A stretch of 10,661 bases of DNA from the IMG/VR virus record IMGVR_UViG_2703718674_000018; one strand, written 5' to 3'. This DNA comes from a virus (lineage: Duplodnaviria; Heunggongvirae; Uroviricota; Caudoviricetes). The notes below the pieces were generated by a model that ran no database searches, was not told the DNA's origin, and saw only the letters and a list, made by a program, of their open reading frames with translations. Positions within the stretch are counted from its first letter, which is position 1; each line of letters starts with the position of its first letter. Positions 5,463 through 9,964 of the stretch are shown here, piece after piece. The position numbers and the translations under genes are program-made.

Positions 5463-5570
5463 TGTTTTTTAACCTCAACTCAGATTAAAATTCGTTTTGT
5501 TCAGTGAATGATCTTGCCGGATACACACTGTTCATAGCCTGCGTATGGCGCAGGCTATTTCTTTCAGATT

Positions 5571-5840
5571 TCACCGCCTAATTTCATTGCAATCAGAGTT
5601 GCCAGAAATTCGGCTTTTTTTTCTGCGGGCAGATTCTTTCCTATGTGCACCAGACACATTTTTTTTAACACCATCGTTAAGTGTTTTAACGTTGCCTGAT
5701 GGACCGTCGATATCAACCACAGTGAATGGGGTTTCTTTATTTTCTGTCTTAATCACGTAGCCAATACGCTTTCCTTCCAGGGTAACTTCGTGAACAATGT
5801 CATCAGTAGTAACAACAGTGGCTTCATAACTGGTAATCAT
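5571..5840 (-). CDS. racC: RacC-like small protein; frame as sequenced gives 89 aa with an Arg/Ser-rich tail (possible frameshift at A8 run)
   Basis: ATG at 5840 preceded by TAAGGAG (5-nt spacer). N-terminal 60 aa (MITSYEATVVTTDDIVHEV...GPSGNVKTLNDGVKK) look like RacC as I remember it. After the A8 run (plus-strand T8 at 5659-5666) the frame encodes NVSGAHRKESARRKKSRISGNSDCNEIRR; see findings. Confidence 0.6.
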   Translation of the reverse strand: MITSYEATVVTTDDIVHEVTLEGKRIGYVIKTENKETPFTVVDIDGPSGNVKTLNDGVKKNVSGAHRKESARRKKSRISGNSDCNEIRR

Positions 5841-7173: not shown

Positions 7174-7593
7174 TTACTCCGGTGGGGGATTATCTTTAAG
7201 CCTGCCTCTCAAATATTTTTCTACATACTCATCGATTTCTTTTAGCCGGACTTCAAATAGCTCAATCATTCGTTGTTGTTCTGAGCCCGGTAGCTGGTTA
7301 AACAACTCAAGAAGTTTTCGTTGGGATTCATTTAACCACAATTCAGAAGATTCCTGTTCTCCAAAGAGGAGCTCAGGAGGAGATATGCCAAGTGCCTTTC
7401 CCAATACGACAGCGTCATGCACTCCAACATTTCTGCTACCCGCCTCATAGTTACCTATACGCGATTGCGTCCATCCGCAGATTTCAGCAAGTTTTCCTTG
7501 AGATAAACCAAGCTTCTGCCTGCGCTCTTTAAGACGCATTGCAATTTTGTCATTGAGCCTACTAGCGGCAATTTTTTCGTTTTCTTTTTCCAT
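7174..7593 (-). CDS. Prophage repressor, XRE-family HTH, 139 aa (cI/RacR analogue; no LexA-type cleavage motif recognised)
   Basis: ATG at 7593 preceded by AAGGA. HTH region LKERRQKLGLSQGKLAEICGWTQSRIGNYEAGSRNVGVHDAVVLGKALGISPPELL. Divergent from the Cro-like gene across a 96-bp operator region and followed by a terminator. Confidence 0.8.
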   Translation of the reverse strand: MEKENEKIAASRLNDKIAMRLKERRQKLGLSQGKLAEICGWTQSRIGNYEAGSRNVGVHDAVVLGKALGISPPELLFGEQESSELWLNESQRKLLELFNQLPGSEQQRMIELFEVRLKEIDEYVEKYLRGRLKDNPPPE

Positions 7594-7689
7594 TGCATCC
7601 TTGTATCACGAATCGTGATTTACACAAAACACAAAACATCTTGACCGTATAACACAAGATGTGTTTAAAATTGTCATCGGAGGTTTTCA
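7594..7689. promoter_or_regulatory. Divergent promoter/operator region (OR/PR-PRM analogue) between repressor and cro-like gene
   Basis: Two 15-bp palindromes of the same family: ATCAC-GAATC-GTGAT (7605-7619) and AACAC-AAGAT-GTGTT (7651-7665), plus ACAAAAC direct repeats (7623-7637). Plus-strand -35 TTGACC (7641-7646) with -10 TTTAAA/TAAAAT (7664-7671). GGAGG SD at 7679-7683 ahead of ATG 7690. Confidence 0.6.
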
Positions 7690-7932
7690 ATGAACAAAAT
7701 TTCAACATATCGAAAACAGCTTGGGCTGTCTCAAAGACAACTTGCTGTTCAGTTAGGGTGGATACAAAGCCGACTGGCAAATTACGAAGCAAATTTTCGT
7801 ACCCCTGGACTAGAGGAGTGCAGAAAAATTGTTTCTACCCTTAATCGGCTTGGCGCTCATTGTGGACTTGACGATGTATTCCCCCCAGACGGTAAGCATA
7901 GCGAAAACAGCATAGGAGCGGTTGATTCATGA
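7690..7932 (+). CDS. Cro-like HTH transcriptional regulator, 80 aa (first gene of the rightward operon)
   Basis: ATG 7690 with GGAGG SD; HTH segment YRKQLGLSQRQLAVQLGWIQSRLANYE. Divergent from the repressor; stop overlaps the next start (ATGA at 7929-7932). Confidence 0.8.
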   Translation: MNKISTYRKQLGLSQRQLAVQLGWIQSRLANYEANFRTPGLEECRKIVSTLNRLGAHCGLDDVFPPDGKHSENSIGAVDS

Positions 7933-8351
7933 AAATCAGGCATGAGCACATCGAATCAGTGTTGTTAGCCCTGGCAGCCGAAAAAGGGCAGGCGTGGGTC
8001 GCTAACGCAATTACTGAAGAATATCTGCGCCAGGGGGGCGGCGAATTGCCCCTTGTACCAGGCAAGGACTGGAACAATCAGCAGAATATCTATCACCGTT
8101 GGTTAAAAGGTGAAACGAAAGCGCAAAGGGAAAAAATTCAGAAACTGATCCCTGCGGTTCTGGCAATTCTTCCGCGCGAGCTGCGTCACCGACTCTGCAT
8201 CTTCGATACCCTGGAACGCCGTGCATTACTGGCGGCGCAGGAAGCGTTGAGTACGGCAATTGATGCGCATGATGATGCAGTCCAGGCCGTTTACCGGAAA
8301 GCACATTTCAGCGGTGGTGGGTCGCCCGGCGATTCTGTCGTAGTGCATTGA
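7929..8351 (+). CDS. ydaT: YdaT-like protein, 140 aa (position and coupling of lambda CII)
   Basis: ATG 7929 preceded by AGGAG and overlapping the upstream stop. The 140-aa length matches what I recall for Rac YdaT. Function (CII analogue versus toxin) is by recollection of the literature, not visible in the sequence. Confidence 0.7.
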   Translation: MKIRHEHIESVLLALAAEKGQAWVANAITEEYLRQGGGELPLVPGKDWNNQQNIYHRWLKGETKAQREKIQKLIPAVLAILPRELRHRLCIFDTLERRALLAAQEALSTAIDAHDDAVQAVYRKAHFSGGGSPGDSVVVH

Positions 8352-8396
8352 TTGAAATTAATCGTGCCGGATTGTTTTGTTCGGTATCAGTTAAAT

Positions 8397-8857
8397 GTAA
8401 CGCTGCGAGCGTTACAAGGTGAAAACAAATGGCTTCAAACTGGATAAAGCTCGAGGTTATTACGCCGGATAAGCCGGAAATATTCAGGCTTGCTGAGATT
8501 CTGAATATTGATCCAGATGCCGCATTAGGGAAGGTTATTCGCTTCTGGGCATGGGCGGATCAACAAATGATAGACGGTAATGCAGATTGTAACGCTCGCG
8601 GCGTTACAAAAAGTGCAATAGATCGCATCACTTTTATGGCTGGTTTTGCTGATGCGTTAATTCAGGTTGGATGGCTGGTCGAAAATGACGGTGGGCTTTC
8701 TCTACCTAACTTTGAACGTCATAACGGGAAAAGCTCTAAAAAACGGGCGGTTACAAACGAGCGAGTTACAAAAATACGCGAACTGAAACGAAAAGGTAAC
8801 GCTGGCAGCGTTACACAAACGGATCAAAAAGCGTTACCAGAGGAAGAGGAAGAGGAA
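8397..8857. repeat. Iteron-like array: GTAACGC-N5-GCGTTAC inverted repeats and GTTACAAA direct repeats (candidate origin)
   Basis: Full 19-bp inverted repeats at 8397-8415, 8589-8607 and 8796-8814. GTTACAAA half-sites at 8750-8757 and 8765-8772; GCGTTAC at 8831-8837. Followed by (GAGGAA)x3 at 8840-8857 and an AT-rich stretch at 8858-8875. Confidence 0.5.
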
Positions 8858-9217
8858 GATATAAATACTGATCTCCCCCTAAATCCCCCTCGCCAAAAAC
8901 GAGCGTCTAAAAAATTCGAGCCGGAGGCTATCGAGCTGCCTGACTGGTTGCCGGAAACACTCTGGCATGAGTGGGTTCAGTTCAGGCAGGCATTGCGAAA
9001 ACCGATTCGAACGGAGCAGGGCGCTAACGGGGCGATACGGGAACTGGAAAAATTCCGTCAGCAGGGTTTTACACCTGAGCAGGTGATTCGACACAGCATT
9101 GCCAATGAATACCAGGGCTTGTTCGCACCGAAAGGTGTTCGGCCTGAGACGTTGCTCCGACAGGTTAACACCGTCTCGTTGCCGGACAGTGCGATCCCGC
9201 CAGGCTTCAGGGGGTAA
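8429..9217 (+). CDS. ydaU: Phage replication initiator (lambda O-like / YdaU-like), 262 aa, with acidic linker
   Basis: ATG 8429 with AAGGTGA SD. The gene contains an iteron-like array and a (GAGGAA)x3 tract encoding EEEEEE. Sits immediately upstream of the DnaC-like loader, as O precedes P in lambda. Confidence 0.75.
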   Translation: MASNWIKLEVITPDKPEIFRLAEILNIDPDAALGKVIRFWAWADQQMIDGNADCNARGVTKSAIDRITFMAGFADALIQVGWLVENDGGLSLPNFERHNGKSSKKRAVTNERVTKIRELKRKGNAGSVTQTDQKALPEEEEEEDINTDLPLNPPRQKRASKKFEPEAIELPDWLPETLWHEWVQFRQALRKPIRTEQGANGAIRELEKFRQQGFTPEQVIRHSIANEYQGLFAPKGVRPETLLRQVNTVSLPDSAIPPGFRG

Positions 9218-9223
9218 CAGGCC

Positions 9224-9964
9224 ATGAAAAATATTGCGACAGGAGGCGTTCTGGAGCGTATCCGCAGACTGACCCCACCACATGTAACCGCCCCATTCAG
9301 AACGGTTGCGGAGTGGCGCGAGTGGCAACTTACTGAAGGCCAGAAACGTAGCGAGGAGATCAACCGCCTGAATCGTCAGTTGCGGGTGGAAAAAATTCTG
9401 AATCGCTCAGGCATCCAGCCGTTGCACCGTAAATGCTCGTTTGCGAATTACCAGGTGCAGAACGACGGCCAGCGATACGCGTTAAGCCAGGCGAAATCCA
9501 TCGCTGATGAACTGATGACCGGGTATACAAATTTTGCGTTCAGCGGAAAACCTGGTACCGGGAAGAATCACTTAGCGGCAGCTATCGGGAATCGCCTGTT
9601 GAAAGACGGTCAGACAGTGATTGTGGTTACCGTGGCTGATGTTATGAGCGCCCTGCACGCCAGCTATGACGACGGGCAGTCAGGCGAAAAATTTTTGCGT
9701 GAACTGTGCGAAGTGGACCTCCTGGTTCTTGACGAAATTGGCATCCAGCGTGAGACGAAAAACGAGCAGGTGGTACTGCACCAGATTGTTGACCGCCGGA
9801 CGGCATCACTGCGCAGTGTCGGGATGCTGACAAACCTGAATCATGCCGCAATGAGCACGCTTCTTGGTGAGAGGATTATGGACCGGATGACCATGAACGG
9901 TGGTCGTTGGGTGAATTTTAACTGGGAGAGCTGGCGGTCAAACGTTGGACGTCAGGGTATGTGA
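9224..9964 (+). CDS. ydaV: DnaC-like replicative helicase loader (IstB-type AAA+ ATPase), 246 aa
   Basis: Walker A FSGKPGTGKNHLAAAIG and Walker B DLLVLDEIG visible in the translation; follows the initiator gene by 6 nt. The 246-aa length matches my recollection of Rac YdaV. Confidence 0.9.
   Translation: MKNIATGGVLERIRRLTPPHVTAPFRTVAEWREWQLTEGQKRSEEINRLNRQLRVEKILNRSGIQPLHRKCSFANYQVQNDGQRYALSQAKSIADELMTGYTNFAFSGKPGTGKNHLAAAIGNRLLKDGQTVIVVTVADVMSALHASYDDGQSGEKFLRELCEVDLLVLDEIGIQRETKNEQVVLHQIVDRRTASLRSVGMLTNLNHAAMSTLLGERIMDRMTMNGGRWVNFNWESWRSNVGRQGM

Follow-up and report, generated by a model that had tools for sequence, protein, structure and literature searches.

Phased GTAACGC half-sites in and just upstream of the initiator gene of a Rac-like prophage form a candidate replication origin

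Replication origins that lie inside initiator genes are classical. In phage lambda, the origin lies within gene O, in the segment for the linker that connects an N-terminal domain that binds DNA with a C-terminal domain that recruits the loader; it has four tandem iterons, 20-24 bp apart, of which the first starts at +348 of O (read from NC_001416), and an 18-nt purine run on the coding strand (AAAAGAAAAAAGAAAAGA) directly follows iteron 4. Two further points of comparison are the Rac prophage of Escherichia coli K-12 and the initiators of epsilon15-, TL-2011b-, Xanthomonas CP2- and Pseudomonas PAN70/VW-6S-like phages (phrog_2509 / phrog_9474), which are often labelled 'primosomal protein I'. 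Here we analysed a 10,661-bp stretch of viral DNA (IMG/VR record IMGVR_UViG_2703718674_000018, hereafter the window), which is a Rac-like lambdoid prophage of E. coli. Short repeats built from GTAACGC and its complement GCGTTAC lie at its replication initiator gene (8429-9217, plus strand; 262 amino acids (aa); phrog_2509). On comparative sequence evidence, we propose that these repeats are probably recognition sites of the prophage's own initiator, and that together they form a replication origin that lies within the initiator gene and in the sequence just before it. Our searches of the searchable literature, including that on oriJ, ydaU and DUF1376, turned up nothing that describes the origin of this family, its half-site or its purine tract, and the phage records that we inspected carry no origin annotation (the epsilon15 RefSeq entry marks IHF and repressor sites only).

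The palindrome GTAACGC-N5-GCGTTAC occurs in three exact copies in the window, and still in only three when two mismatches are allowed, compared with 0.02 expected. None of 200 dinucleotide-preserving shuffles reached three copies, and chance was thus rejected as the source of the repeats. The GCGTTAC heptamer, counted on both strands, occurs eight times (1.0 expected), with seven of the eight inside 8397-8837. This enrichment is local, since a motif scan of the rest of the prophage found no further palindrome in the remaining 19 kb of a prophage copy designated L001. The sites exist and are non-random. Palindrome 1 (GTAACGCTGCGAGCGTTAC, GTAACGC-TGCGA-GCGTTAC; 8397-8415) lies in the intergenic region between ydaT and the initiator gene. 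Palindrome 2 (GTAACGCTCGCGGCGTTAC, GTAACGC-TCGCG-GCGTTAC; 8589-8607) and a degenerate half-site located 12 bp before it (GTAATGC, 8577-8583) make up cluster A (8577-8607), which encodes a loop of the N-terminal domain (aa 50-60, GNADCNARGVT). Cluster B (8750-8838) consists of GTTAC at 8750 and 8765, palindrome 3 (GTAACGCTGGCAGCGTTAC; 8796-8814) and a terminal half-site, GCGTTACC (8831-8838), and encodes the end of a basic helix and a disordered linker. Directly after this last half-site, on the plus strand, comes an all-purine tract, A(GAGGAA)x3GA (8839-8859, with (GAGGAA)x3 at 8840-8857); at 21 nt, it is longer than any other run of purines or of pyrimidines in the window. The first-pass annotation, which had proposed a candidate origin here, had correctly placed the three palindromes (starting at 8397, 8589 and 8796), the half-sites at 8750, 8765 and 8831, the (GAGGAA)x3 tract and the recurring VT peptide motifs. 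Its central proposal, that initiator-binding repeats form an origin in and just upstream of the initiator gene, gains strong support from our comparison of ~60 distinct homologous loci.

A first scan of IMG/VR returned near-identical E. coli loci only, which we used for polymorphism analysis. Among 61 distinct close variants, changes in the palindrome arms were rare (one or two variants each), and most of the polymorphism was held by the 5-bp spacers (8404-8407, 8599-8600 and 8804-8807). The arms of palindrome 1, for example, varied only at 8403, in two variants, while its spacer varied at four of five positions (8404-8407). Conserved arms with variable spacers are the pattern expected of a dimer that touches two half-sites. 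Every E. coli-type IMG/VR locus has palindrome 1, at -32/-18, and other lineages lack it; by this comparison, it is an additional site that only the E. coli Rac-like lineage has. The degenerate half-site of cluster A reads GTAAC in 15 of the 61 variants (8581 T>C). In 16 of the 61, 8767 T>A turns GTTAC into GTAAC and so flips the orientation of that half-site.

The layout of the window resembles that of lambda in several respects. Dyad-symmetric sites of 18-19 bp lie inside the initiator gene and in part encode the interdomain linker, with cluster B at +321 to +410 of the gene, and they are followed by a strand-asymmetric region, in that a coding-strand purine run directly follows the last site in both (21 nt in the window). 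In both, the initiator gene is a mosaic with an exchangeable, ori-specific N-terminal half, and it takes an operon position after cro- and cII-like genes. As for differences, the two initiator proteins have no detectable homology, the loader in the window is DnaC-like and not lambda P, and the C-terminal domain of the window initiator appears DnaT-like. In place of tandem iterons, the window has two clusters ~200 bp apart plus the upstream copy, with half-sites of 5-7 bp phased 11-14 bp apart, and its purine tract is GA-rich rather than AT-rich. The bipartite array of phased half-sites, the GA-rich tract and an unusually wide conservation of the iterons at the nucleotide level are thus features unlike lambda.

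The Rac prophage of K-12 is of the same prophage type, is likewise integrated beside ttcA, has the same order racR-ydaS-ydaT-initiator-ydaV, and encodes a YdaU-type C-terminal domain (81% identity over 124 aa) beside a YdaV loader; ydaU also has repeats, at ~+148 and +390 to +450, and the C-tract motif is present. However, the N-terminal domain in K-12 is DUF1376, to which that of the window is unrelated, and GTAACGC/GCGTTAC is absent from the 7-kb K-12 locus (L002), where the repeats are of the (C)AGATGTTCAA / AAGCAGATGTTCAA type. Because both the N-terminal domain and the repeats differ, the window would represent a different origin specificity and not an allele of oriJ. An alignment with oriJ, to which the first-pass annotation had looked for a check, would be uninformative for the same reason. 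Within ydaU itself (L002 4261-4580, +141 to +451), we observed five copies of (A)AGCAGATGTTCAA, including the palindrome TGTTTGAACA, in a two-cluster layout followed by an A-rich purine stretch; these ydaU repeats are candidate oriJ iterons.

Initiators of the epsilon15-, TL-2011b-, CP2- and PAN70/VW-6S-like phages have an N-terminal domain homologous to that of the window protein (32-66% identity) and share both the two-cluster intragenic layout of half-sites and the purine tract. What sets the window lineage apart from them is the added upstream palindrome, 12 bp inserted into cluster A, (GAGGAA)n instead of (GAGAA)n, and the YdaU-type C-terminal domain. A tblastn search with the N-terminal domain found homologs in 59 phage records, from phages of Escherichia, Klebsiella, Salmonella, Xanthomonas/Xylella, Pseudomonas, Ralstonia and Vibrio, and we retrieved 12 loci from among them. 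When IMG/VR was scanned again with a distant member as seed, 51 further distinct loci of 40-62% G+C were added. Nine phage homologs (43-66% identity, 47-64% G+C) carry GTAAC/GTTAC at two shared positions of the gene: cluster A at ~+148 to +200, with half-sites at +148/+162, and cluster B at ~+340 to +405. All 51 loci of the second scan have the same two-cluster layout, and the half-sites at +148/+162 read GTAAC/GTTAC in every GTAAC-type homolog. Across 47 distinct non-Rac loci, half-site density was 32.7 per kb inside the clusters and 0.91 per kb outside them, a 36-fold difference (binomial p ~1e-306). In the high-GC phages, the gene and the sequence immediately before it account for nearly all GTWAC occurrences of the 5.4-kb locus (Xylella Usme, 5 of 6; PAN70, 6 of 6; Ralstonia YL1, 7 of 8).

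The internal architecture of the clusters is also conserved. Successive half-sites are spaced by 11, 12, 14, 22 or 25 bp, that is, by one or two helical turns. A typical cluster B reads (GTAACGC-N5)x2-3, GCGTTAC, N6 and GCGTTACC, followed directly by (T/C)AGAGAAGAGAAGAGAAGAGAAGA. In most of 55 aligned sequences the terminal GCGTTACC abuts the purine tract, and most also have one to three phased GTAAC upstream.

A palindrome scan of a genome collection returned at least 120 loci which, among the matches listed, were mostly isolated single copies and mostly unrelated; 7 of 120 palindrome loci, among the matches listed, encode a homolog of the N-terminal domain. All three loci among these matches that have two palindromes 204-228 bp apart do encode the homolog (Photobacterium, a Pirellulaceae metagenome-assembled genome (MAG) and a Phycisphaerales MAG). 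In each of the Vulcanimicrobiota MAGs ER1, ER2 and CTOTU7676, many different contigs have a copy of GTAACGC-N5-GCGTTAC (L177, L184, L187, L192, L203, L214, L215, L221, L227, L229, L230, L234, L239, L241, L246, L248 and L252), and none of these loci is among the seven listed matches that encode the homolog, which suggests that the Vulcanimicrobiota copies are an unrelated dispersed repeat of that lineage. A search of plasmids for the module returned two records only, both phage-like. One of them, the 41,205-bp circular 'plasmid' NC_015459.1 of Pusillimonas sp. T7-7, is lambdoid phage-like and encodes CII, NinB, Ref, Rha, an initiator of this family and an ATP-binding loader; it may represent an excised phage, or a phage-plasmid, replicating by means of this initiator module.

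The DNA repeat could be the by-product of a repeated peptide motif (G-N-A-x-x-V-T) needed by the protein. Palindromes 2 and 3 share a reading frame and encode CNARGVT and GNAGSVT, and G50, N51, A52, V59 and T60 are nearly invariant residues, as this explanation would have it. Yet synonymous positions within the motif are frozen, unlike those of other conserved residues. When we compared residues conserved in at least seven of nine homologs, pairwise codon identity was 0.84 in motif columns and 0.36 elsewhere (Mann-Whitney p = 8e-6). Gly50 is GGT in 9 of 9, Val59 GTT in 9 of 9, Asn124 AAC in 7 of 7, Val128 GTT in 7 of 7 and Leu136 TTA in 8 of 8, while other four-fold sites in the homologs are scrambled; GGT, GTT and TTA are kept even in phages of 64% G+C. 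The same DNA is furthermore read in different frames. The cluster B palindrome reads GGT AAC GCT GGC AGC GTT ACA (GNAGSVT) in the window, whereas in TL-2011b and a Klebsiella phage it reads GTA ACG CCA ACA GCG TTA (VTPTAL); the terminal half-site is in the third frame (GCG TTA CC, ALP), so that a single gene reads GTTAC in every frame (GGT AAC, GTT ACx and xxG TTA Cxx). The copy at 8397-8415 is non-coding. Finally, the motifs are found in low-confidence or disordered regions of the protein: cluster A encodes a low-confidence loop with a 4-codon indel, and cluster B and the purine tract encode a disordered linker. The sites thus occupy the least constrained parts of the protein. These comparisons show that the repeat sites are under selection at the level of DNA and not of protein, and a protein repeat was rejected as the source of the motif on codon and frame data; as an explanation it is extremely improbable. 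The frozen codons and frame differences indicate that the peptide motifs are a consequence of the DNA sites, which upholds the view of the first-pass annotation that the repeats impose them.

We next asked which component of these loci covaries with the half-site. Distant homologs retain the two-cluster layout with different half-sites. Vibrio phage 1.211.B has GTCAC / GTGAC at +151/+165 and +358/+372 (7 of the 12 in its locus), and Ralstonia phage Raharianne has GTAGAC twice, then GTCTAC, at +141 to +167 and +357 to +383 (7 of 8). In epsilon15, a 41-nt unit of GTCCGC twice, then GCGGAC twice, occurs at +54 and +333 (8 of 11). K-12 ydaU, with an unrelated N-terminal domain and a near-identical C-terminal domain, has TGTTCAA-type repeats at +148 and +392 to +451 (4 of 5). 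Among GTAAC-type homologs, by comparison, the upstream genes (a KilAC antirepressor, Roi, hypothetical proteins), the loaders (DnaC-like, P-like, DnaB) and the C-terminal domains all vary. These comparisons show that, across the loci aligned, the sequence of the site tracks the lineage of the N-terminal domain and not the C-terminal domain, the neighbouring genes or the host. The N-terminal domain is the only constant partner of the half-site type and is therefore the likely binder; we predict that this part of the initiator recognizes the half-sites. The locus has, in sum, what marks a candidate iteron-type origin: short repeats that cluster at an initiator gene, persist in relatives and change together with the initiator.

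The initiator itself matches phrog_2509, 'replication initiation protein', over its entire length (E = 1.2e-89, residues 1-262 on profile positions 1-277 of 277), and PGAP labels the product 'hypothetical'. It has no Pfam match at E <= 0.01 for the whole protein or at E <= 10 for the N-terminal domain. An AlphaFold2 model built from 28 sequences (mean predicted local distance difference test score (pLDDT) 76.6) places a bundle of four helices and a beta-hairpin at aa 16-91, within an N-terminal domain of aa ~10-92, a long basic helix at 95-122, a disordered linker at 125-150 and a confident helical region at ~170-250, within a candidate DnaT-like C-terminal domain of ~170-262. In this model the N-terminal domain looks winged-helix-like, and the aa 50-60 loop encoded by cluster A has low pLDDT. 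The C-terminus matches the DnaT structures 2ru8/9zbt (PDB 2ru8, E = 1.4e-4 over aa 170-262, including a shared ...IPPGFRG end). The NCBIfam DnaT model matches the window protein weakly (E = 0.0038, far below the family cutoff), and PF17948 (DnaT C-terminal) is passed by the homologs TL-2011b, VW-6S and epsilon15. The gene is mosaic. Its product shares 81% identity with K-12 YdaU from ~aa 139 onward (C-terminal 124 aa) and is unrelated to it before that point, and the joint coincides with the (GAGGAA)n tract (window 8839-8859). BLASTP and hhalign against K-12 YdaU accordingly align the C-terminal part alone, and DUF1376 (PF07120), which K-12 YdaU matches at 2.7e-26, has no match in the window protein. 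Comparison with lambda O gave BLASTP E = 1.5, an hhalign probability of 0.1% and no Phage_rep_O match in Pfam, while the 'O-like' phrog_678 matches aa 77-236 only. Homology to lambda O or DUF1376 was rejected by these Pfam, BLASTP and hhalign results. The 'O-like initiator' of the first-pass annotation is thus an initiator gene and a functional analogue of lambda O, and is no homologue of it.

The purine tract is the second conserved element of these loci. It abuts the last half-site in most sequences aligned, and (T/C)AGAGAAGAGAAGAGAAGAGAAGA is found at the corresponding place in relatives, identical even where half-sites differ (epsilon15, Raharianne). Between phages with ~32% protein identity and different half-sites the tract is nearly identical in nucleotides; in epsilon15 it reads GCGGACCAGAGAAGAGAAGAGAAGAGAAGATAT. 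Its GAA and GAG codons are identical in 8 of 8, and it uses AGA for Arg. AGA is a rare Arg codon in high-GC proteobacteria. The (GAGGAA)n copy number is 2-4 among close E. coli variants, and the unit is a hexamer in the window lineage compared with a pentamer, (GAGAA)n, in relatives. In Vibrio phage 1.211.B (L010 2886-2915), a tandem 15-bp purine-rich repeat, GA(C/G)TAGATAAGAGTA x2, replaces (GAGAA)n and encodes DKSRV twice. We infer that the tract is a candidate opening or loading element, and this is the weakest step of the model. The idea that it serves the DnaT-like C-terminal domain specifically was weakened, as the tract is kept where homologs have C-terminal domains without a DnaT match. 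Beyond the tract in the window, on the plus strand, are a short A+T-rich sequence, GATATAAATACTGATCT, and CCCCC-TAAAT-CCCCC (8875-8889, encoding PLNPP), together spanning 8858-8889, and the homology to K-12 ydaU starts at about this point. GATAT and C5-N3/4-C5 recur in many relatives and in K-12, sometimes followed by GGGGG, which forms an inverted repeat; in K-12 ydaU (L002 4633-4656) the sequence is C7-TAAAT-C7-GGGGG.

Taken together, these features suggest how the putative origin might work. The N-terminal domain would bind the GTAACGC / GCGTTAC half-site, as dimers on inverted pairs, with further subunits on single half-sites phased by about one helical turn. Clusters A (8577-8607) and B (8750-8838), ~200 bp apart, together with the lineage-specific site at 8397-8415, would nucleate a multi-subunit complex. 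Duplex opening would most likely occur at the purine tract (8839-8859) and the short A+T-rich stretch after it (8839-8875 in all), and the DnaT-like C-terminal domain would recruit host DnaB via the adjacent DnaC-like YdaV, the presumed partner of that domain. Transcription of the cro-ydaT-initiator-ydaV operon, from a promoter-like site upstream of the cro-like gene, would cross the origin, as in lambda. That the initiator binds these sites and that replication starts there we infer from sequence.

Several observations weigh against this model. The three full palindromes are spaced 192 and 207 bp apart, with no tight tandem iteron array as in lambda. No DnaA box within one mismatch was found adjoining the sites. 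The AT-rich stretch reported by the first-pass annotation at 8858-8875 is real in that its 18 nt are 72% A+T; it is no marked AT-rich unwinding block of the lambda kind, and all 60-nt windows there have at least 41.7% G+C. A search of the literature found no binding or initiation experiment for any member of the family. Initiator-binding sites could serve autoregulation only, and inverted repeats could equally play a role as RNA hairpins.

We considered the regulatory alternative in its wider form, in which the sites, bound by the initiator or by some other regulator, would be nothing more than operators or roadblocks for the initiator-loader operon, with the true origin elsewhere. Initiators commonly autoregulate, palindrome 1 is located 13 nt upstream of the initiator start codon, and neither a strong AT-rich duplex-unwinding element nor a DnaA box adjoins the sites, all of which would suit operators. 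However, a scan of 7500-9300 found no promoter-like sequence in the 77-bp ydaT-initiator intergenic region, the only promoter-like match being at 7671-7700, upstream of the cro-like gene. The sites shared across the family are well inside the coding sequence (+150 and +340 to +400), with the upstream site lineage-specific, and they always occur together with a conserved purine tract, for which an operator would have no use. Homologs that have the motif in common differ in their neighbouring regulator genes. The adjacent CII-like regulator YdaT recognizes a different sequence, TTGATT-N6-AATCAA (PMC9986795), which in the window lies at 7922-7939, and YdaT was rejected as the binder of the GTAACGC repeats. 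Because the sites lie deep in coding sequence, lack a local promoter and are coupled to the purine tract, operator function alone is unlikely, and we continue to favour an origin at these sites. Autoregulation through the first copy, as the first-pass annotation had suggested, is likewise unsupported: no promoter-like site is present there, the upstream copy is lineage-specific, and palindrome 1, said to overlap the ribosome-binding site, ends at 8415 (8416 with its flanking A) and abuts the Shine-Dalgarno sequence AAGGTGA (8416-8422) without overlapping it.

The palindromes might instead act as RNA hairpins in the operon mRNA, controlling translation by occlusion of the Shine-Dalgarno sequence at site 1 or affecting mRNA stability or processing. 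They do fold stably as RNA, at -12.6, -15.9 and -14.0 kcal/mol (z = -2.2, -3.5 and -4.5), the structure at site 1 partly pairs the Shine-Dalgarno sequence, and the concerted arm changes in the Vibrio phage would also keep a hairpin. Conservation of the arms, however, extends beyond complementarity to the sequence itself, across genomes of 40-64% G+C. Many half-sites are unpaired, either as direct repeats phased 11-12 bp apart (GTAACGC x2-3) or as the lone terminal GCGTTACC, and several lineages break the central palindrome (GTTAG) but keep the next half-site. Spacings of 11, 12 and 14 bp, moreover, fit helical phasing on duplex DNA. We therefore regard a purely RNA-level role as quite improbable, more so than operator function, although site 1 may have a secondary translational role beside the Shine-Dalgarno sequence.

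Members of this family are found in phages and prophages of Enterobacteria, Vibrio, Pseudomonas, Xanthomonas and Ralstonia and in contigs of Planctomycetota MAGs. Among 5,426 complete E. coli genomes, 804 carry the N-terminal/origin segment and 1,629 carry some part of the surrounding region. A bolder reading, which we put forward only tentatively and think rather less likely to be right than wrong, is that these loci make up a large undescribed family of phage initiators with one intragenic layout, in which two phased half-site clusters that vary by lineage are joined to a near-invariant (GAGAA)n/(GAGGAA)n tract, and that this tract is a new, non-AT-rich opening or single-strand loading element, which would not simply melt but be recognized by a host factor or by some part of the initiator. 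If so, its role would be comparable to that of DnaA-trios or of the lambda purine run. The more limited proposal of an origin at the repeats provides a sequence-level candidate origin for widespread initiators labelled 'hypothetical' or 'primosomal protein I', and the motif and layout could be used to annotate origins in these phages. Rac-like prophages would then have at least two non-homologous modules of origin specificity joined at the purine tract, which bears on incompatibility, recombination and induction. The locus also offers a case of overlapping codes, with one DNA word kept in all three frames and rare codons frozen in high-GC genomes, and synonymous mutations could separate the function of the protein from that of the origin.

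The surrounding genes are those of a Rac-like element, in the order intR, xisR, recT, recE, repressor, cro-like helix-turn-helix gene, ydaT, initiator, ydaV and a DUF1627 gene. The repressor gene lies on the minus strand (7174-7593), followed by the cro-like helix-turn-helix gene (7690-7932), ydaT (CII-like; 7929-8351) and, downstream of the initiator gene, ydaV, which encodes the DnaC-like helicase loader (9224-9964, plus strand; NF009043, 3.6e-151; DnaC NF005931, 1.6e-91; phrog_50). Window 7600-9300 matches the O157:H7 strain 493/89 chromosome at 99.8% identity; there the element adjoins ttcA. Between recE and a ydaE-like gene, at the position of racC, is a frameshifted pseudogene (window 5564-5840; L001 6965-7241), according to the PGAP annotation of the near-identical O157:H7 record. 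On the minus strand, palindrome 3 followed by CTTTTCGTTT has an intrinsic-terminator-like score, at a chance-level count (2 found, 1.7 expected). The published YdaT box is TTGATT-N6-AATCAA (PMC9986795, PMC11879457), and K-12 Rac has one at the position (PMC11879457) corresponding to that of TTGATTCATGAAAATCAG in the window (7922-7939), which spans the ydaT start codon and is one mismatch from the published box. Matches to the box number four in the window (1.0 expected), and a weaker copy with two mismatches lies at 8348-8365, at the ydaT stop in the intergenic region that precedes the initiator gene.

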